The notes under the pieces: generated by a model
What the model saw: only the letters and a program-made list of their open reading frames with translations
The model's database searches: none
Told to the model about the DNA's origin: nothing
Program-made: the position numbers and the translations under genes
Part shown: in pieces, positions 48,083 to 63,535 of the stretch
Position numbering within the stretch: position 1 is the stretch's first letter
Layout of the letters: the number at the start of each line of letters is the position of its first letter
Source: Hylemonella gracilis
GTDB lineage: Bacteria > Pseudomonadota > Gammaproteobacteria > Burkholderiales > Burkholderiaceae_C
Reading direction: 5' to 3'
Length of the DNA: 64,000 nt
NCBI GenBank assembly: GCA_945862195.1
Contig: CAMAXR010000001.1
Location: forward strand, 6,337-70,336

Positions 48083-51000
48083 ATGGACATGCACCGGAGA
48101 GATTTCTTCCGGGTCAGTGGTGCCGGACTGGTCGGATCCAGTCTTGTGGTTTTGGGTTTTTCGCCCACAGTTGCACTCGCCGAGACTCGGAGTTTTAAAT
48201 TGTCCCGCACTACAGAAACTAGGAACACCTGTCCCTATTGTTCAGTAGGTTGCGGCATCATCATGTACAGCTTGGGCGACAAGTCCAAAAACGTGGTGTC
48301 AGACATCGTCCACATTGAAGGCGACTCAGACCACCCCGTGAACCGCGGCACTTTGTGTCCCAAAGGCGCAGGCCTGCTGGACTTTGTGCACAGCGAAAAC
48401 CGCCTCAAATACCCCGAAATCCGCGAGCCAGGCTCTAAAGAGTGGAAGCGCGTCAGCTGGGACGAAGCCATGACCCGTTTGACCAAAATGATCAAAGCGG
48501 ATCGTGACGCCAACTTTGTGGCTAAAACAGACGACGGCAAAGTGGTCAACCGTTGGACCACCACCGGTATGCTTTGTGCGTCCGCCTCCTCTAATGAGTC
48601 GGGCTACATCACGCACAAAGCCATGCGTTCTATGGGGATGTTGGTCTTCGATAACCAAGCGCGTGTTTGACACGCCCCGACGGTAGCCAGTCTGGCTCCG
48701 ACGTTTGGGCGAGGTGCAATGACCAATCATTGGACCGATATCAAAAATGCAGATTTAGTTTTGATCATGGGCGGCAACGCCGCTGAAGCCCACCCTTGCG
48801 GCTTCAAGTGGGTGGTTGAAGCCAAGCATCACAACAAAGCCAAGCTGTTGGTGGTGGATCCGCGGTTCACGCGCTCCGCAGCCATGGCGGACTACTATGC
48901 ACCGATTCGCGCTGGGTCTGACATTGCGTTCTTGGCCGGTGTGATCAACTATTTGTTGCTCAACGACAAAATTCAGCACGAATACGTCAAGCACTACACC
49001 AACGCCTCCTTCATTGTGGGAGAGGGCTACTCGTTTAAAGACGGTATTTTCTCGGGCTACAACGAAGAAAAGCGCAACTACAGCAATGCAAGTTGGGCTT
49101 ACGAGCTTGACAGCCAAGGCTTTGCTAAGGTGGACGACACCATGCAGCATCCCCGCTGTGTGATGCAAATTATGAAAACCCATTTTGGCCGTTACACGCC
49201 CGAGTTAGTCAGCCGCATCACCGGCACGCCTAAAGACAAGTTCTTGAAGGTGTGTGAGCACATTGCCACCACTGCGGCTCCTAACAAGGCCATGACCGTG
49301 ATGTATGCCTTGGGTTGGACCCAACACAGCCAGGGTACAGAAATGATCCGCTCGGCGGCCATCATGCAGTTGCTCCTGGGTAATATTGGAGTTTCTGGCG
49401 GCGGCATGAATGCGCTGCGTGGCCACAGCAACATTCAAGGCTTGACCGACTTGGGTCTGCTTTCACAAAGCTTGCCAGGCTACCTGAGCTTGCCGCGCGA
49501 AACTGAGCAAGACCTCGAGACTTACTACAAGCCGCGTGCGCTCAAGCCATTGCGTCCCAACCAAATGAGCTTTTGGCAGAACTATCCCAAGTTCTTTGTG
49601 AGTTTGCAAAAAGCTTGGTGGGGCAATGCTGCCACTAAAGAAAACGACTGGGCATTTAACTACTTGCCCAAGTGGGACAAGGGCTACGACATTTTGTTGG
49701 CTTTTGAGTTGATGAACCAAGGCAAGCTCAATGGCTACATCTGCCAAGGCTTCAATCCTTTGGGTTCCTTCCCTAACAAAAATAAAATCCTTGCCGGTTT
49801 GTCCAAGCTCAAGTACTTGGTCATCATTGATCCGCTGGTTACCGAAACTTCTGAGTTTTGGAAAAACTACGGCGAATTCAACGATGTCAAGAGTGAAGAC
49901 ATCCAAACCACCGTGTTCCGCTTCCCCAGCACTTGCTTTGCTGAAGAAAACGGGTCTCTCACCAACTCCAGCCGCTGGTTGCAGTGGCATTGGCAAGGTG
50001 CTAAGCCTCCGGGTGAGGCTAAGGCCGATCCTGAAATCATTGCCGAGATTTTCACTCGCATCAAAGCGGCATATGTCAAAGATGGCGGTGCGTTCCCAGA
50101 CCCGATCGTCAACCTGACTTGGAACTACAGATTGCCCCATAGCCCATCACCCGATGAATTGGCTATGGAGTACAACGGCAAAGCCTTATCGGACGTGTTT
50201 GCGCCTACAGACCCCAAAGAGCCCAATGCACCTCCTAAATTGCTGGTCAAGGCAGGTGATCAAGTGCCTGGTTTTGGCATGCTGCGCGATGACGGCTCCA
50301 CGGCTTGTGGTTGCTGGATTTACTCGGGCGCTTGGACGCAAGCAGGTAACAACATGGCCCGCCGTGACAACAGCGATCCATGGCAAATGGGTCAAACCCT
50401 GAACTGGGCTTGGTCCTGGCCTGCCAATCGCCGCATTTTGTACAACGCAGCGTCCAGCCAGCCAAACGGTAAGCCATGGGATGCCAAGCGCAAACTGGTT
50501 CAGTGGAACGGCAAAGCATGGGGTGGGGCCGACGTGCCTGACATTCGTGCTGATGCAAATCCGGAGGACGCAAACCGCGTGCAGCCGTTCATCATGACGG
50601 CTGAAGGCGTGGCGCGTTTATTCACCCCAACTGGTTTGGCTGAAGGCCCTCTGCCCGAGCACTACGAGCCGTTTGAGTCACCGCTCAAGAACAACCCCAT
50701 GCACCCCAACAACCCACTTGCTCGGGCCAACCCTGCAGCTCGCGTGTTCAAGGGCGACATGGAGGCATTTGGTAAGCCGTCTGAGTTCCCTTATGTGGCC
50801 ACCAGCTACCGCTTGACGGAGCACTTCCACTACTGGACCAAAAACGTACAGACTTCTGCCATCATCCAGCCTCAACAGTTTGTGGAGATTGGTGAAGAAC
50901 TGGCCAAGGCCAAGGGCATCAAAAATGGTGAGCAGGTCAAGGTGTCTTCTAACCGTGGCTTTATCAAAGCCGTGGCCGTGGTCACCAAGCGCATTCCTCA

Positions 51001-51172
51001 GCTCGACGTGGATGGACAGAAGGTCGACACTGTCGGTCTTCCCAACCACTGGGGCTTTGTGGGCGTTGCCAAGCCAGGTTATTTAGTCAATAACTTGACT
51101 CCGTTTGTGGGAGATGCCAACACACAAACACCCGAGTACAAGAGTTTTACCGTCAACATTGAGAAGGCATAA
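48083..51172 (+). CDS. fdnG: Formate dehydrogenase-N alpha subunit, selenoprotein (Sec codon TGA 48668-48670; 1029 aa)
   Basis: Tat signal RRDFF, CPYCSVGC Fe-S motif, DNQARV-U-HAPTVASLAPTFGRGAMTNHW joins the two ORF-track pieces in one frame. Confidence 0.97.
48671..48711 (+). promoter_or_regulatory. Bacterial SECIS element
   Basis: Directly after TGA: CGG-(T bulge)-AGCC-AGTCT-GGCT-CCG upper stem with GT in the loop; lower GCCC/GGGC pairing. Confidence 0.9.
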
Positions 51173-51181
51173 GGAGCCAAT

Positions 51182-52099
51182 ATGTCATCTCTACAATCAC
51201 TCGACATCGCGTTGCGCTCTGCAACCACTACGCCCAGCACATCCATTCGCTCGCAGCCCGAGGTTGCCAAGCTGATTGATGTATCCAGCTGTATCGGCTG
51301 TAAGGCTTGCCAAGTGGCCTGTATGCAATGGAACGACCTCCGCGACGAGGTGGGTACCGTTGCTGCTGGTACTTACGACAACCCTAACGATTTGACGCCC
51401 TCTTCTTGGACGGTGATGCGTTTTTCGGAGGTGGAGGTCAAGCGCGACTCCACCGCTGCAACGCAAGAAACCAACTTAGAGTGGCTCATTCGCAAAGACG
51501 GTTGCATGCACTGCGACGATCCTGGCTGCCTGAAGGCGTGTCCCGCTCCTGGCGCGATTGTCAAATACTCCAACGGTATCGTCGACTTCATCAGCGAAAA
51601 CTGTGTGGGTTGCGGCAACTGCGTGACCGGCTGTCCTTTTGATGTGCCTCGCATCAGCCAAATGGACAACAAGGCTTACAAGTGTTCTTTATGTTCCGAC
51701 CGTGTGGGCGTGGGTCTAGAGCCCGCCTGTGTAAAAGCTTGCCCAACTGGTGCCATTCACTTTGGCACCAAAGAAGACATGCTGGAATACGGCGCAGAAC
51801 GCATCACTGATCTGAAAGAGCGCGGCTTTGCGCAAGCATCCGTTTACAACCCTGCGGGCGTTGGTGGCACACACGTCATGTACGTGTTGCAGCATGGCGA
51901 CAAGCCCGGGTTGTATGCCGACTTGCCTTCCAACCCCAAAGTCAGTCCCATGGTGTCTTTGTGGAAAGGCGCTGCCAAGCCACTCGCCGTATTGGCAATG
52001 GTCGGTGCGGTGGTCGCAGGCTTCTTCCATTACATGAAGGTCGGTCCGATCGAAGAAAAAGCCGAAAAGTCCGATGACAACGAAGCTGCTAAAGCTTGA
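51182..52099 (+). CDS. fdnH: Formate dehydrogenase iron-sulfur subunit
   Basis: Four Fe-S motifs (CIGCKAC, CMHC, CVGCGNC, CSLC) and C-terminal TM anchor. Confidence 0.96.
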
Positions 52100-52121: not shown

Positions 52122-52751
52122 ATGAAATCCACTTCCTCAGACCTGAAGCGCTACGAAGACACCACCCGAATGAACCATTGGGCGATTGCCTTGTTGTTCT
52201 TTTTGGCGGCCTTGTCGGGCTTGGCTTTTTTTCATCCATCGTTCTATTTCTTGACCAACTTGTTTGGCGGCGGGCCTTGGACACGCATATTGCATCCCTA
52301 CTTGGGCTTGTTGATGGCGCTGTTGTTCATTGGCATCTACGTCAAGCTGTGGCGTGACAACATCTTGGTGCCTGTAGACCAAGAGTGGCTCAGCAAAACG
52401 GGCGAAATGTTCAAGGGCAACAAAGACGGTATGCCACCTGTAGGCAAGTACAACGCTGGCCAAAAGCTGGTGTTTTGGTCCATGACCATCAGCTTGGTGG
52501 TTTTGGTGCTCACCGGCATTTTGTTCTGGCACGCTTGGTTCCCAGATTTTCCTGTGGTGCTCAGGCGTATTGGAGTGCTTTTGCACGCCTTTGCCGCAGT
52601 TGTTTTAGTATTGACGGTGATTGTGCACATTTATGCCGCCATCTGGGTCAAGGGCACCACGCGCGCCATGACCAAGGGCACCGTCAGCCGTGGATGGGCG
52701 CAAGCCAACCATCCTCTGTGGCACAAAGAGATGACCCGCAACGACCGTTAA
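52122..52751 (+). CDS. fdnI: Formate dehydrogenase cytochrome b556 subunit
   Basis: RMNHW, RILHP, GKYNAGQK, LLH..VHIYAA. Confidence 0.96.
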   Translation: MKSTSSDLKRYEDTTRMNHWAIALLFFLAALSGLAFFHPSFYFLTNLFGGGPWTRILHPYLGLLMALLFIGIYVKLWRDNILVPVDQEWLSKTGEMFKGNKDGMPPVGKYNAGQKLVFWSMTISLVVLVLTGILFWHAWFPDFPVVLRRIGVLLHAFAAVVLVLTVIVHIYAAIWVKGTTRAMTKGTVSRGWAQANHPLWHKEMTRNDR

Positions 52752-52810: not shown

Positions 52811-53812
52811 ATGAGCGAACCCCGCAGCGTCAAATTTTTGTCACCTGAAGAAATTGCAACCCGCAACATAGGCGATGCGGTTTTCATCAGGCACGCGGAA
52901 ACCGGCCAAATATTTCGCGATCGTGAGTTGCGTTTGCGCCAGCTGGCCGCGGGTCACGCTATGCGGGACTATCTGATATTCATGGCCGATGTGGCAGCTG
53001 CCCAGCACACCCTGCTGCAAAAGCCGCGTGATGTGGAATTGCCGGAGCTTGGATTTTTTCAAGAAGCTCAAAGTTTGGGTGAGCCGCCGCTCACACCAGA
53101 CCGCTGGAAGCTCAGCACCCAATGGGTACAAGACTTACAAGCTTTGTTGCAAGACCTCATACCCAGGCTACAGGTAGGCCCTACCCTGAATGTGCTGGTG
53201 TCTTTGCGTGATGCCAGCCCCGATCACTTGCAACTTCAAGCCGAACGCTTGCTCCAAGGCATCATGTTGGGGCTGGATTTGGGCACGGCTCCTTTAATTG
53301 GGGCTGCGCTGCAAGTGTATTGGGTACGTCTGATTCAGCAAAGCGTGAAAACCTATGGCGAGACCATCTTTGGATTTGTAGACAACCCCACACATTGCCC
53401 GTGCTGTGGCTCAAGACCTGTGGCCAGCGTGGTGCGTGTGGGCGCGGTGGAAACAGGCACCAGATATTTGCACTGCTCTTTGTGCCAAACCCAATGGCAC
53501 ATGGTGCGCATCAAATGCAGCCATTGTGAAAGCACCAAGGGCGTGGCTTATCAATCACTTAAGCCTTTAGAGCCCAACTCGGGTTCCCAGACTGCGGTTC
53601 CTGAGGGGGCGGTTCAAGCTGAAACTTGTGACGAATGTGGTCACTACCTCAAAATTGTGAATATGACCAAAGACCTGTACGTCGACCCTGTGGCTGACGA
53701 TTTGGCTTCCTTAACTTTGGATTTATTGGTGTCTGAAACAGGCAAAGAACGCTACGGGGTGAACTTTATGTTGTTGTTTGGCGCACCAGAGGAGGAGCCC
53801 ACTAAGGCCTAA
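52811..53812 (+). CDS. fdhE: Formate dehydrogenase accessory protein
   Basis: CPCCGS, RYLHCSLC, CSHC, CDECGHYLK, ADDLASLTLD. Confidence 0.96.
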   Translation: MSEPRSVKFLSPEEIATRNIGDAVFIRHAETGQIFRDRELRLRQLAAGHAMRDYLIFMADVAAAQHTLLQKPRDVELPELGFFQEAQSLGEPPLTPDRWKLSTQWVQDLQALLQDLIPRLQVGPTLNVLVSLRDASPDHLQLQAERLLQGIMLGLDLGTAPLIGAALQVYWVRLIQQSVKTYGETIFGFVDNPTHCPCCGSRPVASVVRVGAVETGTRYLHCSLCQTQWHMVRIKCSHCESTKGVAYQSLKPLEPNSGSQTAVPEGAVQAETCDECGHYLKIVNMTKDLYVDPVADDLASLTLDLLVSETGKERYGVNFMLLFGAPEEEPTKA

Positions 53813-53816
53813 ACTT

Positions 53817-55271
53817 ATGCCCGAAAGATCCATCGTGAATGGTCCTAAGGTCAGTTCAATGCCTCAAGAGACTAAAGCCCAACTGCTGTCCCAGCTTCCT
53901 TCCACAGACCGCTTGGTCAGCAGTCCAGTTGGTCAAGCACTGGTCCAAGAACATGGTGCCACCTTGGTCACGCAGCAAGCCCGCGAACTGTTGACCGCCA
54001 CACGTCAACACCTATTGGGTGGTGGCCAGCACAACGTTGAGCTCAGTTTGGAGCAGCAGTTGGCCCAGGGGGTCGCTTCCAAAGTGGCGCCCCGCCTTCG
54101 CCCCATGCTGAACCTGACAGGCACGGTCATCCACACCAATATGGGCCGCGCCGTGTTGCCACAAGTGGCCATTGACTATGTGCACGCCATGATGCAGCAC
54201 CCACTCAATTTGGAATACGACTTGCACACCGGCCAGCGTGGTGACCGAGACAGTATTGTGGAAGGGCTGATATGTGACATCACCGGTGCTCAAGCTGCAA
54301 CCGTGGTCAACAACAATGCCGCGGCGGTATTGCTCACCATTGCCGCATTGGCCCGAGGCCGAGAGGTCATTGTGTCGCGAGGTGAGTTGGTGGAAATTGG
54401 TGGCGCATTTCGTATGCCAGACGTCATGGCCAGCGCCGGCGCCTCTATGGTGGAAGTGGGCACCACCAACCGCACCCACTTGGCCGATTATCAAAACGCC
54501 ATCACGCCCCAAACCGCCTTGTTGATGAAGGTGCACACCAGCAATTACGTCGTGCAAGGATTTACCGCCGAGGTCACAGAAGCCGCCCTGGCCCCGCTGG
54601 CCGCCGCCAAAGGCATACCGCTGGCCACCGACTTAGGCAGCGGATCGCTTATGGACATGAGCCGCTACGGGTTGCCCAAAGAGCCCACTCCTCAAGAAAT
54701 GATTGCCGCTGGCTGCGATGTGGTGACCTTTTCAGGCGACAAATTGTTAGGGGGGCCTCAGGCGGGATTGATTGTGGGCAGCCAAGACGCTATCACCAAA
54801 ATCAAAAAATTCCCCATGAAGCGGGCCTTGCGTTTGTCCAAGTTGCCCTTGGCCGCGCTAGAAGCCACGCTGCGTTTGTACCTGCAGCCCGAACTTTTAA
54901 GAACCCATTTACCCACCTTGCGTTGGCTCACGCGTTCTCAAGCTGAAATTTTGAACATGGCACAAACCGTGTGTCCTGCGGTTCAACAAGCGTTAGGGCC
55001 ACGTTATGAGGTGCGTGTTCAAAACATGATGAGCCAAATCGGTTCGGGCTCGCTTCCCATAGACACCTTGCCTTCTTCGGGGTTGTCCATAACTCCCAAA
55101 TTGGCAGGAAAAAAAGGACTAGGTACAGCCCTAGATCAGCTCGAAGTGGCCCTGCGTGCCTTGCCCACGCCTGTGATTGGCCGTATTGAAAACGACCATA
55201 TTTTGTGGGACTGCCGCTGCCTGGACCACGCCCAAGATCTGACCAACTCCTTGCAGTTTTTGAAGCTTTAA
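53817..55271 (+). CDS. selA: L-seryl-tRNA(Sec) selenium transferase
   Basis: NLTGTVIHTNMGRA, NNNAAA, SRGELVEIGG, EVGTTN, FSGDKLLGGPQAG; start may be 53859. Confidence 0.96.
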   Translation: MPERSIVNGPKVSSMPQETKAQLLSQLPSTDRLVSSPVGQALVQEHGATLVTQQARELLTATRQHLLGGGQHNVELSLEQQLAQGVASKVAPRLRPMLNLTGTVIHTNMGRAVLPQVAIDYVHAMMQHPLNLEYDLHTGQRGDRDSIVEGLICDITGAQAATVVNNNAAAVLLTIAALARGREVIVSRGELVEIGGAFRMPDVMASAGASMVEVGTTNRTHLADYQNAITPQTALLMKVHTSNYVVQGFTAEVTEAALAPLAAAKGIPLATDLGSGSLMDMSRYGLPKEPTPQEMIAAGCDVVTFSGDKLLGGPQAGLIVGSQDAITKIKKFPMKRALRLSKLPLAALEATLRLYLQPELLRTHLPTLRWLTRSQAEILNMAQTVCPAVQQALGPRYEVRVQNMMSQIGSGSLPIDTLPSSGLSITPKLAGKKGLGTALDQLEVALRALPTPVIGRIENDHILWDCRCLDHAQDLTNSLQFLKL

Positions 55272-55277
55272 ACGGAC

Positions 55278-57230
55278 ATGATTGTCGGTACAGCGGGTCA
55301 TATTGACCATGGCAAAACCAGCTTGGTGTTGGCGCTGACTGGCGTGAATGTTGACCGTTTGCCTGAAGAGAAAAAGCGCGGCATCACCATTGAGCTGGGT
55401 TATGCGGCCATGAAGGTGCCTGGCCAAAACCCCATTGCCTTTGTTGATGTGCCCGGCCACGAGAAACTGGTTCGCACTATGATTGCAGGCGCCAGTGGCA
55501 TTGACTTTGCTTTGATCTTGATCGCTGCTGACGATGGCGTCATGCCCCAAACCAGAGAACACCTCAGTGTTTTGTCGTTACTGGGTTTGAGCCGAGGTGC
55601 GGTGGTCATCACCAAATCAGACAAGGCGGACGCTTTCTTGCTGGCCCAACGGGAGCTTGAAGCCCAGCAGATCATTTCCACCACCTCAATGGCTGGCAGC
55701 CCTGTGTGCTGCGTCAGCTCCATAACCGGTGAGGGTATAGACGCACTGAAGCAGTTGCTCATCAAGGCACAAACCCATGAGGCTCAGCAGCAGGCCCACC
55801 CAGTTCAGCCTGCGCTGAGAGCTGACCCACAAGTTGCACATTTCGGCGCCCGCATGGACTTGGACAGGGTGTTCACCCTAGACGGCTTAGGCACGGTGGT
55901 GGCGGGCTGCTTAAGGCAGGGCACTGTAAAGGTGGGCGATAGCCTGTGCTTAGCGCATGAGCCCATGCAAGCCTACCGCGTCAGAAGCTTGCAGTGCCAC
56001 AACCAATCGGTTCAGCAAGTGGCGGCAGGTCAAAGATGCGCCATTGGTTTGGCAGGACTAGAGCGATCTCAAGTAGAGCGCGGCCAAACCTTGTGTGATC
56101 CGCGCATTGCTTTATCTACACAACGTTTTGAGGCCTGGCTTACTTTGCTGCCCGAAGAAGCTAAAGCTTTACGTTCTGGCGCCTTGGTGCACCTGCATGT
56201 GGGCACTCAAGAGGTGATGGCGACCGTCGCTGTTTTGGGGCAAGCATCTTTGGAGCCGGGTGCCTCGGCTCTGGTGCAGTTGGTGGCGCAGCAGCCTGTG
56301 CATGTGTGGTGGGGCGACCTATTGGTGCTGCGAGACGCTTCTGCCACGCGCACCTTAGCGGGCGGGCAGGTGCTCGAGCCCCATGGTTTGATGCGCTACA
56401 GGCAAACCCCCGCCAGGTTGGCGTACTTGCGCCAACAGCAACAGCCTTGGATTCAATCGCGTTTTGTAGCGGCCTTGCAAGACATGTCTTTTGGCTTGGA
56501 GGCTGCACATTGGCGGCGTGCCAATGGATTGGTTGATTGGCCTTTTGTCCCGACGGAGCTCCCTCATGTCGTGGCAGACCAGCACCAACGCTGGTTTATT
56601 GCAGCGCCACACTTTGGCCCTATGCGAGCGCTGGTGGTGGACGCTTTGACCACTTTTCATAACCGTTGGCCTGATGAGGTGGGCCCCGACGTGCAACGTG
56701 CCCGTCGCTTGGCTTTGCCCAAAATGCCTGAAACACTTTGGACCTTGTTGCTCGAGCATTTGGTTCGCACGGGCGACGTGGTGCTCAACCGTGGTTTTGT
56801 GCAGCTGCCCGAGCATTCCGAGCAACTTCGTGAGGCCGATCAAATCATTGCCGATAAAACCTTGCCCCTGCTTTTGAATGGCGCGGTCGACCCGCCGTGG
56901 GTGCGCGATTTGGCGGGCACCCTGCGCTTGCCCGAAGTGCAGGTGCGAATGACCCTAGCCCGACTCGCCAAAATGGGGAGCACCTATAAAATAGTCAACG
57001 ATTTGTATTACCACCCCCAAGTGGTGACGGAGATGGCCAGCTTAATAAGAAAACTTGTGGCCCAAGAGGGTCTGGTCACCGCTGCCAGCTTTAGAGACGC
57101 GGTAGGCCTAGGGCGCAAGCGGGCCATACAAATTCTGGAATTTTTTGATCGCATTGGTTTCCTGCGCCGTGTGGGAGACCATCACTTGTTGCGACCTGGT
57201 ACGGTGTTGTTTCCCGTGGTGGGTCCATGA
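55278..57230 (+). CDS. selB: Selenocysteine-specific elongation factor
   Basis: GTAGHIDHGKT, RGITIELG, DVPGHE, C-terminal winged helix GRKRAIQILEFFD. Confidence 0.97.
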   Translation: MIVGTAGHIDHGKTSLVLALTGVNVDRLPEEKKRGITIELGYAAMKVPGQNPIAFVDVPGHEKLVRTMIAGASGIDFALILIAADDGVMPQTREHLSVLSLLGLSRGAVVITKSDKADAFLLAQRELEAQQIISTTSMAGSPVCCVSSITGEGIDALKQLLIKAQTHEAQQQAHPVQPALRADPQVAHFGARMDLDRVFTLDGLGTVVAGCLRQGTVKVGDSLCLAHEPMQAYRVRSLQCHNQSVQQVAAGQRCAIGLAGLERSQVERGQTLCDPRIALSTQRFEAWLTLLPEEAKALRSGALVHLHVGTQEVMATVAVLGQASLEPGASALVQLVAQQPVHVWWGDLLVLRDASATRTLAGGQVLEPHGLMRYRQTPARLAYLRQQQQPWIQSRFVAALQDMSFGLEAAHWRRANGLVDWPFVPTELPHVVADQHQRWFIAAPHFGPMRALVVDALTTFHNRWPDEVGPDVQRARRLALPKMPETLWTLLLEHLVRTGDVVLNRGFVQLPEHSEQLREADQIIADKTLPLLLNGAVDPPWVRDLAGTLRLPEVQVRMTLARLAKMGSTYKIVNDLYYHPQVVTEMASLIRKLVAQEGLVTAASFRDAVGLGRKRAIQILEFFDRIGFLRRVGDHHLLRPGTVLFPVVGP

Positions 57231-57237
57231 GTTTTGA

Positions 57238-57333
57238 GGAAGGGAATCGCTTCTGGTGGAGCGGCTGGGCTTCAAACCCAGTGGGTGGCGCCATGCGTTG
57301 CCGGGTGGGTTCGACTCCCGCTCCCTTCCGCCA
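57238..57333 (+). tRNA. selC: tRNA-Sec(TCA)
   Basis: 96 nt; 8-bp acceptor GGAAGGGA/TCCCTTCC, 6-bp D stem with TGGT loop, CTGGG-CT-TCA-AA-CCCAG, long variable arm, GCCA end. Confidence 0.97.
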
Positions 57334-57351: not shown

Positions 57352-57807
57352 ATGAACATCTTAGGTTTTGAATACCCCGACACGCATTACTTTTGGCTGG
57401 AGCGTGACATGTGGTGCCTGCCTCAAGCCGACGGTTTGGTCAAGGTGGGTGTGAGCCAGTTTGGTGTGCACATCAGCGGCGACTTTTATATGTGTCGCCC
57501 TAAAAAAGCAGGCACCTACTTGCTGCAAGGTGAAACTTTGGGGGTGGTCGAGCTAAGCAAATCGGTCGTGGCCATCAAAACACCGGTCAGTGGTGAGGTG
57601 GTGAAGGTGAATCCACTGCTTGAAGAAACCCCCGAGCGCGTGCATCAAGATTGTTTTGGCGCTGGCTGGTTGGTGCTCATTGCGCCCAGTCGCTGGTTAC
57701 AAGACCTGACGCAATTGCACCATGGCCCAAGTTTGCTGGAGGCGGCAGATCGCAGAATGCGCTTGGAACCCATGAGCTTTCCTTCAAACACCCCACATCC
57801 CTCATGA
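57352..57807 (+). CDS. GcvH-family / LbpA-like lipoyl-carrier protein
   Basis: VKVGVSQFG, GVVELSKSV (Lys at the lipoylation position), TPVSGEVVKVN, DCFGAGWL; no gcvT/gcvP nearby. Confidence 0.85.
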   Translation: MNILGFEYPDTHYFWLERDMWCLPQADGLVKVGVSQFGVHISGDFYMCRPKKAGTYLLQGETLGVVELSKSVVAIKTPVSGEVVKVNPLLEETPERVHQDCFGAGWLVLIAPSRWLQDLTQLHHGPSLLEAADRRMRLEPMSFPSNTPHPS

Positions 57808-58181
57808 ACCACGGAACCGCAGTGTTGATGTGGTCGGCTGACCTGTCCCAACCCGCTCGGCTGGCCACGCCCTTTATGCTCGCGCAAACCGCTGTGGCGA
57901 TGGACAGTGCGGCGGAGCTTTACTTCACCGCGCAATGTGTCGAGCTGCTGCTGCCTTGCAACTCGGCCCGCCTCATTGGCTTTGGTTCTGAGCAACTTAG
58001 CCTTGGGACTTATTTAGAACGTGCCGTGCAAGATGGGGTCAAGCTCTATGCCTGCAGCCAAGCCATGCATGCACTGAACTACCGCTTGACTGACTTGGCG
58101 CCTTTCGTGACCGGTGCTGGTGGGCTGATTCAGTTTATGGCGCGCTCCCAAGAAAGCCAGTGGCGCACTTTGGTTTTTTAA
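57804..58181 (+). CDS. DsrE/F-like family protein
   Basis: 125 aa from ATG 57804 (ATGA overlap); ATPF..A..AVAMD..ELYFT and GVKLYACSQA with the conserved Cys. Confidence 0.8.
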   Translation: MNHGTAVLMWSADLSQPARLATPFMLAQTAVAMDSAAELYFTAQCVELLLPCNSARLIGFGSEQLSLGTYLERAVQDGVKLYACSQAMHALNYRLTDLAPFVTGAGGLIQFMARSQESQWRTLVF

Positions 58182-58197
58182 AGAAAGCAGTGCACCT

Positions 58198-58758
58198 ATG
58201 AACCCCTTAGCACTTGAATGCTTGCTGTCCAGATTTTCAACGGGCCCCAAGCATTTGGTCGAGCCAGGCCCCAACGCCGCTCAGCTGGAGCTGATGGTGC
58301 AAGCGGGTCTTAGGGGTCCAGACCATGGTGAACTGGTGCCGTGGCGTGTGGTGGTCATTGATGGTGCTGCCAAAGTGCGCATGGCAGATTTGTTTGTGCA
58401 GCATGCACAGCAAAAAGGCAAGGGCCCTGAGGCCATAGAAATGGAGCGTGACCGTGCGCTTCGTGCCCCCTCCACTTTAGCCGTCATAGCCCAAATTGAC
58501 CCAGCGCACCCCTTGGTGCCCGCGCATGAGCAGTGGATGTGCATTGGCGGAGCTATCACCAACATGCTCAATGCCGCGCATGCCATGGGTTTTGGCGCCA
58601 AGATTCTCAGTGGCGATAAAACCCGTTCAGCCCTCATCTTGCAAGCCTTCTGCCAGCCCGGCGAAACCTTGGCCGGTTGGATCACGCTGGGCACGCCCAA
58701 CAAAAAGCCAAGTACCAACAAGCCCAAAGACTGGAGGCAAGTCCTCAGTCCTTGGTAG
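58198..58758 (+). CDS. Nitroreductase family protein (YdjA-like)
   Basis: LLSRFS, EPGP, RGPDHGELVPWR, RAP, HEQ, AAHAMGFGA. Confidence 0.9.
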   Translation: MNPLALECLLSRFSTGPKHLVEPGPNAAQLELMVQAGLRGPDHGELVPWRVVVIDGAAKVRMADLFVQHAQQKGKGPEAIEMERDRALRAPSTLAVIAQIDPAHPLVPAHEQWMCIGGAITNMLNAAHAMGFGAKILSGDKTRSALILQAFCQPGETLAGWITLGTPNKKPSTNKPKDWRQVLSPW

Positions 58759-58857
58759 AAGAGGCTTGCAGTCAAGGGTTTTACTCGATGGTTGAGGGGG
58801 CTGTTCAGGGGCAATAATCAGAATCGACTTTTTCCAATCAATAGATGGAGCATTCCT

Positions 58858-59844
58858 GTGAAGTTTGGCCAAGCCCTATCGCGTCGTCGTTTTATTCAAT
58901 CCAGTGCATCTTTGGCTTTAGCGGCCAGTCCAATGTCTTGGGCCCAAATGGGAGACAAGCGCCCCGTTAAATTGTTGGTGCCTTTCACGCCCGGAGCCGG
59001 TCCTGACATATTGGCCAGGCTCTTGGCGCCCAAGCTCACCTTAAGGTGGGATCTGCCGGTGATTGTGGAAAACCGCCCAGGGGCATCGGGCACCATTGGT
59101 GCCGATGCTGTGGCCAAGTCTGCGCCGGATGGCCACACCTTGATGGTGGGTCCAGCTTCATCTCTCACGGGGCCACACCTATACCCCAAGTTGCCCTTTG
59201 ACATCATCAAAGATTTGCAGCCCATCACCAACGTGGGCACCACCAGTTTGGCTTTGGTGGTTCACAAAGGTTTTCCAGCCAACAATGTTCAGGAGTTCAT
59301 TGCTTACGCCAAAGCGCGTCCGGGTCAACTCAACTATGGCTCACCGGGCAACGGCACGCACCACCATTTGTGTATGGAGTTGCTCAAGCTCCAAGCAGGT
59401 ATCAGCTTGGTGCACATTCCTTACAAAGGCTCATCGGGCGCAGAAAACGACCTCATTGCCGGCATCATCCCCACCATGTTTTTGCCTATTCACGTGGCAT
59501 TACCCAAGTTGCGCGCCGGGCAAATCAAGGTGTTGGGCTCCAGCCTTAAAGAGCGTCACCCGCTGTTTAAAGACATTCCTTCTCTGCACGAGCAAGGTGT
59601 TACCGGTTACGACGTCGACCTGTGGCTGGGTGTTTGGGGGCCTGCTGGCATGTCGCCTGCGCTGCTCAACCGTTACAACGCCGACATCCGAGCCATCGTG
59701 GCGCAGCCCGACACACAAGAAAGATTGGCCGCCCAGGGCTTGGTGCCCAACACCAGCACGCCAGAGCAGTTTTCTCGCTTGGTGTTGCAAGAGTGGGAGC
59801 GTTGGGGCAAGGTCATTAAAGACGCCAAAATTACCGCAGACTGA
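58858..59844 (+). CDS. Bug/TctC solute receptor with twin-arginine signal
   Basis: GTG start after GGAG; SRRRFI; VPFTPGAGPDILAR, ENRPGA, HIPYKG. Confidence 0.92.
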   Translation: MKFGQALSRRRFIQSSASLALAASPMSWAQMGDKRPVKLLVPFTPGAGPDILARLLAPKLTLRWDLPVIVENRPGASGTIGADAVAKSAPDGHTLMVGPASSLTGPHLYPKLPFDIIKDLQPITNVGTTSLALVVHKGFPANNVQEFIAYAKARPGQLNYGSPGNGTHHHLCMELLKLQAGISLVHIPYKGSSGAENDLIAGIIPTMFLPIHVALPKLRAGQIKVLGSSLKERHPLFKDIPSLHEQGVTGYDVDLWLGVWGPAGMSPALLNRYNADIRAIVAQPDTQERLAAQGLVPNTSTPEQFSRLVLQEWERWGKVIKDAKITAD

Positions 59845-59846
59845 AC

Positions 59847-60698
59847 ATGAACCCCATTCATTCAGTGGGCTTGTTGGGCCTAGGAAAAATGGGCGCGCCC
59901 ATGGCAGGGCACCTGATACGCAAGGGCTTCAAGGTGGTGGGGTTTGACCCAACGCCTGCAGCTTGCGCTCAAGCCAGCGCCTTAGGTGTTCATATGGTGC
60001 CCAGCCCTGCTGAGGTGGCGCGTCAAAGTGACATGGTGCTGGTGGTGGTGGGCTTTGACAGTGAGGTAGAAGACGCGCTTTGGGGACCAGAGGGCGTGGT
60101 GCAAGGTGCAGCGCCTGGCCTTATTGTGGCCTTGGGCTCTACGGTGTCGCCCAGCTATGCCCGAACGCTGGGGGTGCAACTCTTGCAAAAGCACCTCACC
60201 CTGCTTGATATTCCTCTAACCCGCGGGGAGGCTGCGGCCATTTCCGGAAAAATGTTGATCTTGGGTGCGGGCGAGCCTCAAGCCTTTGAGGCCTGCCGTC
60301 CTGTGTTTGAAACCTTTGCTTCTGATATTTTCCATTTGGGGGATACAGCGGGTGCGGGGCAAGTGGGAAAAATGGTCAACAACTTGATTCTGTGGGCCTG
60401 TACCGCAGCTAACGATGAAGGTCTGCGCTTGGGCGAGGTCATGGGCGTTGACCCTCTCAAAATGCGCGCCGCGCTGCACCACAGCAGCGCGCAAAATTGG
60501 GCGATGGACGAGCGCGCCGACCTCAGCGGCATGCCTTGGGCTGAAAAAGATATGAACATCGTGCTGCAAGAAGCCGATCAAGCGCGCATCAGCTTGCCCT
60601 TGTGCGGCACCATTAAAGAAGTCATTAAGGGTCTCAAAATTCGTATGGGTTTGGGCATACCGCAAGTGGTTGTCAAGCTCAATAGCAGGAGCGCTTAA
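59847..60698 (+). CDS. NAD(P)-dependent beta-hydroxyacid dehydrogenase family
   Basis: GLGKMGAPMA, STVSP, GAGQVGKMVNN, KDM. Confidence 0.9.
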   Translation: MNPIHSVGLLGLGKMGAPMAGHLIRKGFKVVGFDPTPAACAQASALGVHMVPSPAEVARQSDMVLVVVGFDSEVEDALWGPEGVVQGAAPGLIVALGSTVSPSYARTLGVQLLQKHLTLLDIPLTRGEAAAISGKMLILGAGEPQAFEACRPVFETFASDIFHLGDTAGAGQVGKMVNNLILWACTAANDEGLRLGEVMGVDPLKMRAALHHSSAQNWAMDERADLSGMPWAEKDMNIVLQEADQARISLPLCGTIKEVIKGLKIRMGLGIPQVVVKLNSRSA

Positions 60699-61684
60699 TG
60701 GACTATGTCGGTCTGGAGTCGGTGAGCTTTGGCTCAGAAGATTTAAAGCAGTCGCGCCAGTTTTTTACCGACTGGGGCCTTCAAAAAGTGGGCCAAGGTC
60801 GAGACTCTTTGACCTTTCAAGTGGGTAACGAAAGCCGCGTGCTGGTGCGTTCGGACCAAAGCCCCAAGCTGGCCCCAAAGTTGCACCCCGATTCGCAGTT
60901 TCGTTCGTTTGAGCTGGGGTTAAAGCGCCAAAAAGACCTTGAAGCCCTTGCGGCCGATCTGTCTAAAGACCGTGCGGTGCATGAAGATGCAGAGGGCAGG
61001 GTGCATTTTCAAGACGACGCAGGTATTTACGTGAGCTTGAGTGTGAGCAAGCGGCTGCACGTCAAGCCCCCGCAGGGCATTGCCCGCAATGAACCAGGGC
61101 GCCGTGCCCGGGTCGACCGCATCAGTCCTGTGTACGCTAAAGCGGCGCCTTGGCAAATGGGGCATATCGTATTTTTTGTGCCCAATACCAAAGAGGCTGA
61201 AAGCTTTTACATCAAGCGCCTAGGCTTTTGCTTGTCCGACCGTTACGTGGGCGGTGCGGGTGTATTTTTGCGTTGGGCACAACGCAGTGAGCATCACAAT
61301 TTGTTTTTGATCAAAAGCCCGCACGGCAAAGCCATGCTGCACCACATTGCGTTTGAGGTGCGAGACCAACACGAGGTGTTTGGGGGCGGCTTGGCTTTCT
61401 CAAACAAGGGCTGGGCGACCGAGGTGGGCCCTGGTCGGCATCCCATTTCTTCGGCCTACTTTTGGTACTTTAAAAACCCGCATGGCGGCTCCATTGAATA
61501 CTTTTGCGACCCAGACTTTGTGACCGAGCAGTGGAAGCCACACCAGTACCGGGTCAACCGCTTCAGCGAATGGCATTTGCCACACGGCATCCAGCAAGTG
61601 GACGACGGCAAAAAACGCCCCTCTTTGGCGGTGGCCGTTGAAATTGAAAAAAACCGCACCCATAAAACAACGGAGACCCCTTGA
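60698..61684 (+). CDS. VOC-fold (type I) extradiol ring-cleavage dioxygenase
   Basis: MGHIVF, EHHNL, LHHIAFEV, GPGRH..YFWYFKNPHGGSIEY give a His/His/Glu triad plus catalytic His and Tyr. Confidence 0.85.
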   Translation: MDYVGLESVSFGSEDLKQSRQFFTDWGLQKVGQGRDSLTFQVGNESRVLVRSDQSPKLAPKLHPDSQFRSFELGLKRQKDLEALAADLSKDRAVHEDAEGRVHFQDDAGIYVSLSVSKRLHVKPPQGIARNEPGRRARVDRISPVYAKAAPWQMGHIVFFVPNTKEAESFYIKRLGFCLSDRYVGGAGVFLRWAQRSEHHNLFLIKSPHGKAMLHHIAFEVRDQHEVFGGGLAFSNKGWATEVGPGRHPISSAYFWYFKNPHGGSIEYFCDPDFVTEQWKPHQYRVNRFSEWHLPHGIQQVDDGKKRPSLAVAVEIEKNRTHKTTETP

Positions 61685-62553
61685 AAGAGCAACACGTCGA
61701 ATTTGTATCCCAAGGCCATCGCATGGTGGGCATCGTGCGCTGGCCCGACCAGTTGGATAATGCAACTCAGCACCCAGCCATGCTGGTGCTGCATGGCTTT
61801 GGCAGCAATATGTCTGCTGAAAACGTGCTGGGTCCCTGTGCCGAATTAGAGGCTATGGGCTACATCACCATGCGTTTTGACATGCCGGGCTGTGGCGGCA
61901 GCGAAGGTCCTCGCGGTCATTTAATTTGTATGGAACAGGTGCAATGCACCCAAGACGCGCTGACGTGCCTGATGCAGCAAACCAGCGTTAACCCCAAAGC
62001 CATTGGCGTCATGGGGTCCAGCTTTGGCGCTGCTGTTGCGGTGTATGCGGGTGCTGTAGACCAGCGGTTTGCCGCAGTGATTTCATCGGGGGGCTGGGGC
62101 CATGGTGAGCGCAAATTTAAGGGCCAGCACCCCACCCCAGAGGCCTGGAGCAAATTCACCCACATGCTGGAGCAAGGGCGTCAACACCGAGCCTCCACCG
62201 GGCAATCGCTGATGGTGCCGCGTATGGACATCGTGCCTATTCCGCAGGGTCTCAAGCGGCAAATTGTGCCGGGCTCTATTCAAGAATTTACGGCCGAAAC
62301 CGCACAAAGCATGTTTGACTTTAAGGCAGAAGAGGTGGTGCACCGCATCAGCCCCAGGCCATTGCTGTTGCTGCACAGTTCTAAAGATTCAGTGACGCCT
62401 ACCGAGCAATCCATTGCCATGTTTGGCCGCGCCCAGTTGCCGGTGGAACTCCACCTCTTTGCCGACACCGACCACTTTATGTTGGCCGAGGGCAATGAGC
62501 GGGTGTGGAATGTGGTGGGGGACTGGTTGTCTAAATTTCTGCCCAAACCTTAA
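61681..62553 (+). CDS. Alpha/beta hydrolase
   Basis: LHGFG, GGSEG, nucleophile elbow GSSFG, Asp in SSKDSV, His in TDHF. Confidence 0.9.
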   Translation: MKEQHVEFVSQGHRMVGIVRWPDQLDNATQHPAMLVLHGFGSNMSAENVLGPCAELEAMGYITMRFDMPGCGGSEGPRGHLICMEQVQCTQDALTCLMQQTSVNPKAIGVMGSSFGAAVAVYAGAVDQRFAAVISSGGWGHGERKFKGQHPTPEAWSKFTHMLEQGRQHRASTGQSLMVPRMDIVPIPQGLKRQIVPGSIQEFTAETAQSMFDFKAEEVVHRISPRPLLLLHSSKDSVTPTEQSIAMFGRAQLPVELHLFADTDHFMLAEGNERVWNVVGDWLSKFLPKP

Positions 62554-62569
62554 CTTGGAGCGCTTTGCC

Positions 62570-63535
62570 ATGTGGAGTCGTTTATTGAGTTCTTTGCTGT
62601 TGGCCTTGGCCAGCATGGGTTTGGTCTTTACCGCGTCGGCGCAAGACTACCCCTATAAACCTATCAAAATCATGGTGCCCTACCCACCGGGTGGAGTCAC
62701 AGATGTGGCTACCCGCATGGTGGCGCCCAAAATGAGCGAGACCTTAGGCCAGCCCATCATCATTGAAAACATTCCTGCCGCAGGCGGCGTGGTGGGCACC
62801 AATGCGGTGGCCAGAGCTGCACCCGACGGCTATACCCTGATGTCTGCCTTTGACAGCTTTGCCACCAACCCCTACATGTACAAAGGGGTTCAGCACGACC
62901 CCCTTAAAGACTTTGTGCCCATCTCGCTCATGGTTAAAAGCCCTCAGTTGTTGGTGGTGCATCCTGGCTCCGGCATCAAATCCATTGCAGACCTGATTCA
63001 GCAGGGCAAAGAAAAAAACAAAGTGTTTTTTTCAACCCCCGGGGCCGGTACTTCAAGCCGCTTGTCGGCGGAGCTGCTCAAGTCCATGGCGGGCATGGAC
63101 ATCACCTTAGTGTCCTACCGGGGCGGAGCTGCGGCTTTGAACGATTTGCTGGGCGGGCAGGTCACCGGCATGATCGCCTCCATGGGCTTGGTGTTGCCTC
63201 ATGTGCAGAGCGGCAAAATCTTGGCCATTGGAGTGTCGTCTCCAACGCGCTCGGCTCAGCAGCCCAATGTGCCCACTATTGCTTCAGTGATTCCTGGGTT
63301 TGAGGCCCAGTCTTGGACCGGCATGGTGGCACCTGCGGGCACACCTAAACCCATTCTCGACAAAGTTCATGCCGCATTGGTCAAAGCCTTAGCCAGCCCC
63401 GACGTTAAAGACAAATTGGCTGCACAAGGTATTGAAGTGGTGGGCTCCAGCTCTGCGGAATTTGCAGATTGGTTGCAAAAAGAAACCGTGCGTTGGAGCA
63501 AGGTCATCAAGGATCGGAGCATCACGCTCGAATAA
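62570..63535 (+). CDS. Bug/TctC solute receptor
   Basis: Sec-pathway signal peptide, VPYPPGGVTD, APDGYTL, SYRGG; RBS GGAG. Confidence 0.93.
   Translation: MWSRLLSSLLLALASMGLVFTASAQDYPYKPIKIMVPYPPGGVTDVATRMVAPKMSETLGQPIIIENIPAAGGVVGTNAVARAAPDGYTLMSAFDSFATNPYMYKGVQHDPLKDFVPISLMVKSPQLLVVHPGSGIKSIADLIQQGKEKNKVFFSTPGAGTSSRLSAELLKSMAGMDITLVSYRGGAAALNDLLGGQVTGMIASMGLVLPHVQSGKILAIGVSSPTRSAQQPNVPTIASVIPGFEAQSWTGMVAPAGTPKPILDKVHAALVKALASPDVKDKLAAQGIEVVGSSSAEFADWLQKETVRWSKVIKDRSITLE

Follow-up and report, generated by a model that had tools for sequence, protein, structure and literature searches.

A lipoyl carrier and a DsrE-like protein encoded behind the tRNA-Sec gene in Hylemonella gracilis and its relatives: a candidate selenium relay

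The genes behind selC in Hylemonella gracilis

We analysed a stretch of 64,000 nucleotides from Hylemonella gracilis (contig CAMAXR010000001.1, positions 6,337 to 70,336; hereafter the window) in which two small genes, encoding a lipoyl carrier of the GcvH fold and a DsrE-like protein, directly follow selC, the gene for the selenocysteine tRNA (tRNA-Sec). The gene for the carrier, which is LbpA-like (151 aa; 57352..57807, + strand; PF01597), starts 18 nt past tRNA-Sec, the gene for the DsrE-fold carrier (125 aa; 57804..58181, +; PF13686 and PF02635) is joined to it by an ATGA overlap, and a gene for a YdjA-like FMN nitroreductase (186 aa; 58198..58758, +; PF00881) begins 16 nt after the DsrE-like gene. 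A check of the open reading frames and the tRNA returned exactly the coordinates, gaps and overlap that had been given in the original prediction, a model's reading of the sequence without database searches, and the motifs listed there (VELSKSV, PKKAG, the N-terminus and LYACSQ) were all located in the reading frames.

The pair lies at the 3' end of a supercluster of formate dehydrogenase (FDH) and selenocysteine (Sec) genes, which is encoded on the + strand throughout. It starts with fdnG (48083..51172), encoding the Sec-containing catalytic subunit of FDH-N/O, which shows the Molybdop_Fe4S4, Molybdopterin and Molydop_binding domains when TGA is read as U, and which has its in-frame TGA at about 48668 and a SECIS element at 48665-48723 (Rfam SECIS_3, 77 bits). 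Then follow fdnH (51182-52099; matches to Fer4_11 and Form-deh_trans), fdnI (52122-52751; match to Ni_hydr_CYTB), fdhE (52811..53812; encoding the FDH-N/O maturation factor, with FdhE_N, FdhE_central and FdhE_C), selA (53778..55271; encoding selenocysteine synthase; PF03841, 512 bits), selB (55278..57230; encoding the Sec-specific elongation factor, with GTP_EFTU and SelB winged-helix domains) and selC itself (57237..57333; anticodon tca; identified by ARAGORN and by Rfam RF01852 with 76 bits). A scan for promoters and terminators from selB to the nitroreductase gene gave no signal exceeding the shuffle expectation; the one terminator-like site that it returned lies 3' of fdnI.

The carrier has the fold of the glycine-cleavage H protein. 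It matches GCV_H (PF01597) with 78 bits, and its AlphaFold model (made from the family alignment; pLDDT 93.6) superimposes on the lipoylated E. coli H-protein 3ab9 (TM-score 0.79/0.92), including the hairpin of the lipoyl lysine; Lys70, which is invariant in alignments of 27 and of 83 family sequences, is predicted to be that lysine. An ordinary glycine-cleavage H protein, linking for instance formate oxidation with glycine and C1 metabolism, would be in line with the public annotation of the family ('glycine cleavage system protein H') and with canonical GcvH giving the best PDB and hidden Markov model matches, but we find this reading scarcely credible. The carrier scores under both NCBIfam GcvH cut-offs (NF002270, 77.5 versus 117; TIGR00527, 58.7 versus 115.85), its constant partner is the DsrE-like protein, and gcvP was not found in the 84%-complete source assembly, nor gcvT or gcvP in the window. 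Where canonical GcvH has an acidic patch of the V-(E/D)-L-P/DLPE type, the carrier has the basic stretch MCRPK (residues 47-51), with CRPKK (residues 48-52) aligned to V(E/Q)LP of GcvH; in the carrier family R49, P50 and K51 are invariant and C48 is present in 95%. In a quick maximum-likelihood tree the betaproteobacterial and alphaproteobacterial sel-linked carriers and a SoxY-neighbouring carrier form one clade (SH-aLRT 100), separate from 11 canonical betaproteobacterial GcvH sequences, a small outgroup sample for which long-branch effects have to be kept in mind.

The source genome has one other gene with a GCV_H domain, of canonical score (133 bits), on contig C85 (L001:30-3356), outside any gcvTHP operon and flanked by genes for ETF-ubiquinone oxidoreductase (ETF-QO), a two-domain rhodanese and an OsmC-like protein. 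Because of this second gene, and because no gcvP was found, the window carrier is not needed for glycine cleavage and is probably not used in it. The carrier subfamily is discrete: clustering at 90% identity divides it into 130 clusters, with 44-94% identity to the query. Most of these are annotated as 'glycine cleavage system protein H', but they are almost certainly not glycine-cleavage proteins, which matters for the annotation of the family.

The partner protein exceeds the cut-offs of PF13686 (DrsE_2, 30.7 bits) and PF02635 (DsrE, 24.6 bits), and a Foldseek search with its AlphaFold model (family alignment; pLDDT 96.2) gave 2qs7, 3pnx, YchN, TusD and DsrE as best PDB folds. It combines the fold of the DsrE/TusD superfamily with the active-site cysteine at the end of the central strand and the start of the helix by which that superfamily is recognised: Cys84 (LYACSQ) aligns with the cysteine of 2qs7, is invariant in 79 family members and stays invariant in DsrE-like relatives down to about 20% identity. 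The family is small, with 566 representatives at E <=1e-3 among 1.84 billion proteins.

Conservation of the pair at selenocysteine loci

A pattern scan of species-representative genomes gave 155 loci, and 80 Burkholderiales loci were fetched, on which the betaproteobacterial locus counts are based. These loci come from Massilia, Polaromonas, Hylemonella, Ramlibacter, Roseateles/Pelomonas, Comamonas, Ottowia, Brachymonas, Hydrogenophaga, Aromatoleum and other genera, the nearest ones to the window being those of Hylemonella metagenome-assembled genomes (MAGs; 90-98% identity). The DsrE-like gene adjoins the carrier gene in every locus that is intact at the contig ends, with the single exception of the Rhodocyclaceae locus L043, and 40 of 78 pairs show the ATGA overlap. 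Of the 72 loci whose upstream sequence extends over 3 kb or more, 67 contain tRNA-Sec, and the same-strand gap from its 3' end to the start of the carrier gene has a median of 35 nt and is at most 60 nt in 42 of the 67. A gap of a few to some tens of nucleotides is too short to hold a separate promoter, which makes it probable that the pair is co-transcribed with selC in the same-strand loci. In Comamonas-type loci the sel operon is convergent, and tRNA-Sec still abuts the end of the DsrE-like gene in six of them. Five genomes have the pair away from the sel genes; selA is present in all five, with a distance of 16-18 kb between selA and the pair in the two Brachymonas genomes. The linkage to sel and fdn genes is strongly conserved, far beyond what chance would produce, so that a lack of conservation, which had been named as a reason to abandon the original prediction, does not apply. 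The pair is a conserved accessory of the fdn-fdhE-selAB-selC supercluster.

In a sample of 301 genomes of the family, the carrier was found in 28, all of them with both selA and fdhE; selA was found in 77, and the carrier and the pair are absent from all 224 selA-negative genomes. The genomes are related, so the counts overstate statistical independence; the nestedness in selA-positive genomes and the micro-synteny are unambiguous despite this kinship. The module is an accessory one, with about one third of the selA-positive relatives carrying the pair.

tRNA genes attract insertions, and selC is a classic insertion site for islands. The pair could be cargo that happens to lie next to a tRNA gene, or the remnant of a sulfur-oxidation cluster, with no functional tie to its neighbours, and its closest paralogues are indeed found in sHdr sulfur-oxidation clusters. 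We consider this very improbable, given that the pair has been met with in one family in at least 19 genera, that it also occurs in other Burkholderiales and, strongly diverged, in Alphaproteobacteria, and given a gap to tRNA-Sec that is often only 5-40 nt. Moreover, no integrase is present among the annotated neighbours (no dedicated search for integrases or att repeats was made), no Hdr genes lie in the window, and no further LbpA-type gene was found in the source genome.

The nitroreductase gene had originally been placed with the pair in a three-gene unit. The carrier and DsrE-like genes do belong together, but the nitroreductase gene is not an obligate companion of theirs: it occurs in about 34 of the 80 pair loci, in some of them split from the pair by other genes, and it follows tRNA-Sec in 3 of 13 pair-less genomes with selB within the fetched stretch. 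It is a separate, independently sel-linked unit. The window protein matches PF00881 with 59 bits, has the YdjA-type PRK10828 as its best NCBIfam match (117 bits, under the cut-off of 183), is 38% identical to E. coli YdjA over 171 residues and has a cysteine, Cys152, that is invariant in the family. The annotated record of E. coli K-12 shows ydjA directly upstream of selD (ydjA-selD-topB), as had been stated in the original prediction; in both cases a gene for a minimal nitroreductase of the YdjA type stands beside a selenium gene, although in the window this neighbour is selC and not selD, and the protein stays under the equivalog cut-off. The module suggests that the orphan YdjA nitroreductase family has a role connected with selenium. 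In Roseateles/Pelomonas-type loci a gene for the binding protein of a putative selenate ABC transporter (TIGR04553; 348-395 bits versus a cut-off of 250) lies between the DsrE-like gene and the nitroreductase gene, sometimes accompanied by PhnC/PhnE-like subunits. The cluster is modular, consisting of selC, the carrier/DsrE pair, an optional putative selenium transporter and an optional YdjA-like reductase.

Several loci have additional genes. In Brachymonas sp. M4Q-1 (L045:7948-9848) tRNA-Sec is separated from the GcvH-like gene by genes for a TerC-family membrane protein and a LysR regulator. Several Burkholderiaceae (L047:4621-7700, L052:3038-7907) have four genes inserted between selA and selB, encoding an Rv1679-family acyl-CoA dehydrogenase, an Rv1680-family SBP-like protein, an AurF-like di-iron protein and a transglutaminase-like protein. 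Other Hylemonella (L015:6372-7721; L024 and L034 by spacing) have at that position a gene for a 449-aa FCSD/SQR-like flavoprotein with weak matches to the models 'SQR type III, selenoprotein subtype' and 'Nterm_to_SelD'.

A distant version of the pair (22-33% identity to the window version) was found in Alphaproteobacteria, where a DsrE-like subfamily with about 22% identity to the window protein is common among Hyphomicrobiales, Rhodobacterales and related groups. We fetched 80 loci, of which 45 are sel-linked and 35 have a paralogous DsrE-like gene. The sel-linked loci show the order fdhE, selA, selB, tRNA-Sec, two conserved genes, an optional ligase gene, the DsrE-like gene and the GcvH-like gene, in other words with the pair reversed relative to the window. 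The ligase gene, of the single-domain LplA/LipB type, overlaps the DsrE-like gene in about 21 of these 45 loci. In eight loci the GcvH-like gene is directly followed by a gene for an oxidoreductase (PNDR)-SelD fusion, which in about ten further loci is found nearby on the other strand; the one fusion that was scanned (L147) exceeded the cut-offs of TIGR03169 ('Nterm_to_SelD', 412 bits) and TIGR00476 (269 bits). No such PNDR domain, fused or adjacent to SelD, is encoded in the window, where the YdjA-like nitroreductase is the sole nearby flavoprotein.

The two conserved genes between tRNA-Sec and the ligase or DsrE-like genes (L116-L160; e.g. L135:5153-5608 and L135:5535-5984) encode proteins of about 150 aa that have no Pfam or NCBIfam match and are absent from the betaproteobacterial loci; the second of these proteins carries the motifs PLCSTYFNVIGDE and NEGHFFDKWGRR.

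Kinship with sHdr accessory genes

In the 35 alphaproteobacterial loci with a paralogous DsrE-like gene, this gene heads hdrC-hdrB-hdrA clusters with a ligase gene nearby, and its product is 60-64% identical to the sel-linked DsrE-like proteins of Alphaproteobacteria. Three Rhodobacterales genomes have the order ligase, dsrE, hdrC, hdrB, hdrA, about 3 kb of other genes and a GcvH-like gene, which is the published sHdr/LbpA architecture (PMC6067878), and the GcvH-like (LbpA) proteins of these three clusters match the profile of the sel-linked carriers with 175-182 bits. The DsrE tree places the sel-linked proteins of Alphaproteobacteria and the Hdr-linked ones in sister clades, and the betaproteobacterial sel-linked clade, to which the window protein belongs, is separate, at only 22-41% identity. 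The closest relatives of the module are the LbpA/DsrE/ligase accessory genes of sHdr clusters, and the module may have been recruited to sel loci twice, or once with strong later divergence.

The claim that the carrier is more like LbpA than like canonical GcvH holds in part. In LbpA proteins a cysteine is conserved close to each terminus (Cao et al. 2018, PMC6067878), and a basic patch, TPRK in RmLbpA2 versus DLPE in GcvH, is described as a determinant of ligase discrimination (preprint 10.64898/2026.10.01.755906). The kinship with sHdr genes and the patch CRPKK of the window carrier are in line with the claim; the two hallmark cysteines are not, as they are present neither in the window carrier nor in the betaproteobacterial family, in which C48 is the only conserved cysteine. 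A subset of the alphaproteobacterial sel-linked carriers keeps both (N-terminal RGC, C-terminal (E/A)GC), together with a basic TP(K/R)(R/K) patch (FTPKR). The assignment of the window carrier as an LbpA proper was rejected on the missing two-cysteine hallmark, with the kinship retained: since both cysteines have been lost and there is no private ligase, we classify it as LbpA-like. Sequence and fold searches of the PDB with the carrier returned only canonical GcvH and GcvH-L, and no chain named LbpA, so that such searches are unable to tell GcvH from LbpA.

The sel module and the LbpA/DsrE/sLpl(AB) set of sHdr systems have in common that a GcvH-fold lipoate-binding protein is paired with a DsrE-fold cysteine carrier and that, in Alphaproteobacteria, a single-domain LplA-type ligase is encoded as well. 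Unlike the sHdr set, the sel module has no HdrABC genes and is located behind selC and beside selD; TusA and LipS1/S2 are not among the genes annotated in the window and the fetched loci, the betaproteobacterial branch (including the window) lacks a dedicated ligase in addition to the LbpA cysteines, and the source organism shows no sHdr system. In the source assembly (1.94 Mb in 171 contigs) the lipB-lipA genes on contig C56 account for the only LplA/LipB-type domain found.

Another DsrE-fold protein that is tied to SelD, Sec and FDH biogenesis is YedF/FdhU (TIGR03527), which like YedE is a candidate for selenium trafficking (PMC5322559, PMC2432076). The window protein differs from it in being a single-domain protein without a TusA/SirA domain, CGxC motif or TIGR03527 match, in having a single invariant cysteine in an AC(S/T) context and in having a lipoyl carrier as its partner; YedF itself was not found in the source genome.

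A putative selenium relay and competing explanations

Candidate carriers that would bring reduced selenium to SelD in bacteria without the release of free, toxic selenide are cysteine desulfurases, thioredoxin, YedE/YedF and DUF3343, so far only partly tested. The pair at the selC/selD locus is a concrete and genetically tractable candidate for this delivery. We see an even chance that it forms an Hdr-less lipoate/DsrE chalcogen relay at the selenocysteine genes, feeding or reducing selenium for SelD. The genes around the pair connect it with SelD, with a putative selenium importer and with flavin reductases, and the chemistry of such a relay is plausible, since a lipoyl arm in its reduced form is a vicinal dithiol, persulfides are carried by DsrE cysteines, and substrates of the lipoyl type are reduced by disulfide oxidoreductases; taken together, these links and this chemistry lead us to favour a relay to SelD. 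Delivery of selenium to SelD or SelA had been one of two alternatives in the original prediction, and it is strengthened by the PNDR-SelD fusions downstream of the pair in Alphaproteobacteria and by the putative selenate binding protein in the cluster of some Betaproteobacteria. Lipoic acid selenotrisulfide is reportedly stable and reducible by thioredoxin reductase, a finding ascribed to Self, Tsai and Stadtman (PNAS 2000). There are precedents in the literature for parts of the scheme: TrxA, a vicinal-dithiol protein, is described as the first step of selenite assimilation for FDH (PMC8538045), an oxidoreductase adjoining SelD was proposed to generate the substrate of SelD (PMC2432076), and YedF, with its TusA and DsrE-like parts, was linked to selenium and FDH (PMC5322559).

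In such a relay the carrier would be lipoylated on Lys70, by the housekeeping LipB/LipA in this organism and by the cluster-encoded ligase in Alphaproteobacteria. The reduced dithiol arm would take up oxidised or thiol-bound selenium as an adduct of the selenotrisulfide type near the conserved basic patch (Arg49, Lys51), and by swinging would pass it on to the DsrE-like partner, whose synthesis is translationally coupled to that of the carrier and whose Cys84 would thereby become a perselenide. A flavoprotein, which could be the SelD-fused PNDR domain in Alphaproteobacteria and the YdjA-like nitroreductase or another flavoenzyme in Betaproteobacteria, would then free protein-guided selenide for SelD, and SelD would supply SelA for the Sec residue of FdnG. 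The wider proposal, that protein-bound lipoate is a physiological selenium carrier and that LbpA-type and DsrE proteins derived from sHdr systems form a relay giving SelD its selenide, is put forward tentatively, with a probability that we place somewhat short of even; the relay was possibly borrowed twice, once in Alphaproteobacteria and once in Betaproteobacteria. If true, it would supply the step that has long been missing in aerobic bacteria between the uptake of selenium and the synthesis of selenophosphate, and it would be a second non-classical job of lipoate, after sHdr sulfur oxidation.

Several observations weigh against a relay to SelD, some of which point to FDH instead. The fdhE and selA genes are nearly co-extensive in the 301-genome sample (58 genomes with both, 2 with fdhE only), and the pair is found in none of the 19 selA-positive, fdhE-negative genomes, which means that it tracks the fdn-sel supercluster and not Sec use alone; because of this near co-extension the phylogenetic profile could not separate selenium from FDH. 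In L043 a solo GcvH-like gene directly follows fdhE, and in Roseovarius mucosus an LbpA1-like gene lies downstream of the genes for a non-Sec FDH, fdsGBA-fdhD-fdsD (preprint 10.64898/2026.10.01.755906). In addition, selD is not adjacent to the pair in the source genome, the second cysteine that is common in DsrE relatives is a valine in the window protein, and Cys48 of the carrier is not universal, being replaced by threonine in Alphaproteobacteria.

These points raise the alternative that the pair acts in FDH maturation, either by carrying persulfide sulfur to FdhD or to the bis-MGD cofactor (for the Mo=S ligand) or by keeping the Sec/Mo site of the periplasmic FDH-N/O reduced while it is assembled with FdhE. 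The presence of fdhE in 28 out of 28 carrier genomes, the lack of the pair in the 19 selA-positive, fdhE-negative genomes just mentioned, the position of the solo gene in L043 and the Roseovarius locus would all fit, and the DsrE and LbpA relatives in sHdr systems are sulfur carriers (PMC6067878). The pair lies, however, at the selC end of the supercluster and not beside fdnG, fdhE or fdhD, its contact with tRNA-Sec is kept when the orientation is inverted, and in Alphaproteobacteria it stands between selC and the SelD fusion. Its neighbours are a putative selenate transporter and a ydjA-like gene instead of fdhD or moa genes, FdhD is present anyway, and two thirds of the genomes with fdhE and selA do without the pair. 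We regard a role in FDH maturation as the main rival of the selenium relay, but as unlikely. A replacement of FdhD by the pair, the other alternative of the original prediction, was rejected: the window indeed lacks fdhD and selD, along with the other genes that had been reported missing, but fdhD is located elsewhere in the source genome (contig C51), as is selD (contig C54), and fdhD is also present in five out of five alphaproteobacterial module genomes tested.

The Rhodocyclaceae MAG of L043 (G001, contig C54; L114, L091) has two fdn clusters, one of which is followed by the solo GcvH-like gene; the second contains selA-selB, and about 13 kb downstream lies a GcvH-like/DsrE-like pair that is more divergent. 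A genome from the genus of the source organism (G311; L207, L208) has two carrier copies on one contig, about 17 kb apart, and most of the congeners searched have no carrier.

A further alternative is redox protection or detoxification, in which the lipoyl dithiol would act as a reductant with the DsrE-like protein and the nitroreductase and either remove reactive selenium species or shield selenide and Sec against oxidation, without delivering selenium. Lipoylated GcvH-like proteins are known as electron donors of OsmC/Ohr (cited in preprint 10.64898/2026.10.01.755906), the hosts are aerobic freshwater and soil Burkholderiales, and the TerC-family and LysR genes of Brachymonas (L045) as well as the nitroreductase and the FCSD/SQR-like flavoprotein in some clusters would be in line with such a function. 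No peroxidase gene is conserved in the cluster, however, and the nesting in selA-positive genomes and the tight coupling to selC (in Alphaproteobacteria to selD) fit biosynthesis better than protection, so that we judge this explanation improbable.

The original prediction stated that no system with such an arrangement had been described, and literature searches, including one for ydjA and selenium, found none either. Full-text searches, and term searches within comparative-genomics papers and reviews on selenium (2008, 2015, 2022 and 2026), turned up no mention of a lipoyl carrier or LbpA-type protein at sel loci. The type of relay was already known; new here is a putative lipoate-binding-protein/DsrE relay without Hdr that is attached to selenocysteine genes.

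The one true selD of the source assembly is senC of the senA-senB-senC selenoneine cluster on contig C54, which lies outside the window (L096:3357-11186) and comprises egtD, senA, senB and senC. Beside it we found a TIGR04553 putative selenate ABC transporter, with a binding protein, a PhnC-like ATPase and two PhnE-like permeases; a transporter of the same TIGR04553 type was noted near sen clusters by Kayrouz et al. Since senC is the only true SelD gene found in the assembly, a single SelD probably serves both Sec and selenoneine synthesis in this organism. In the window, the region 3' of the nitroreductase gene (58792-63535) is an unrelated TctC/aromatic cassette outside the module, encoding a TctC/Bug receptor, a 3-hydroxyisobutyrate-dehydrogenase-like protein, a VOC/glyoxalase-fold dioxygenase and an alpha/beta hydrolase.

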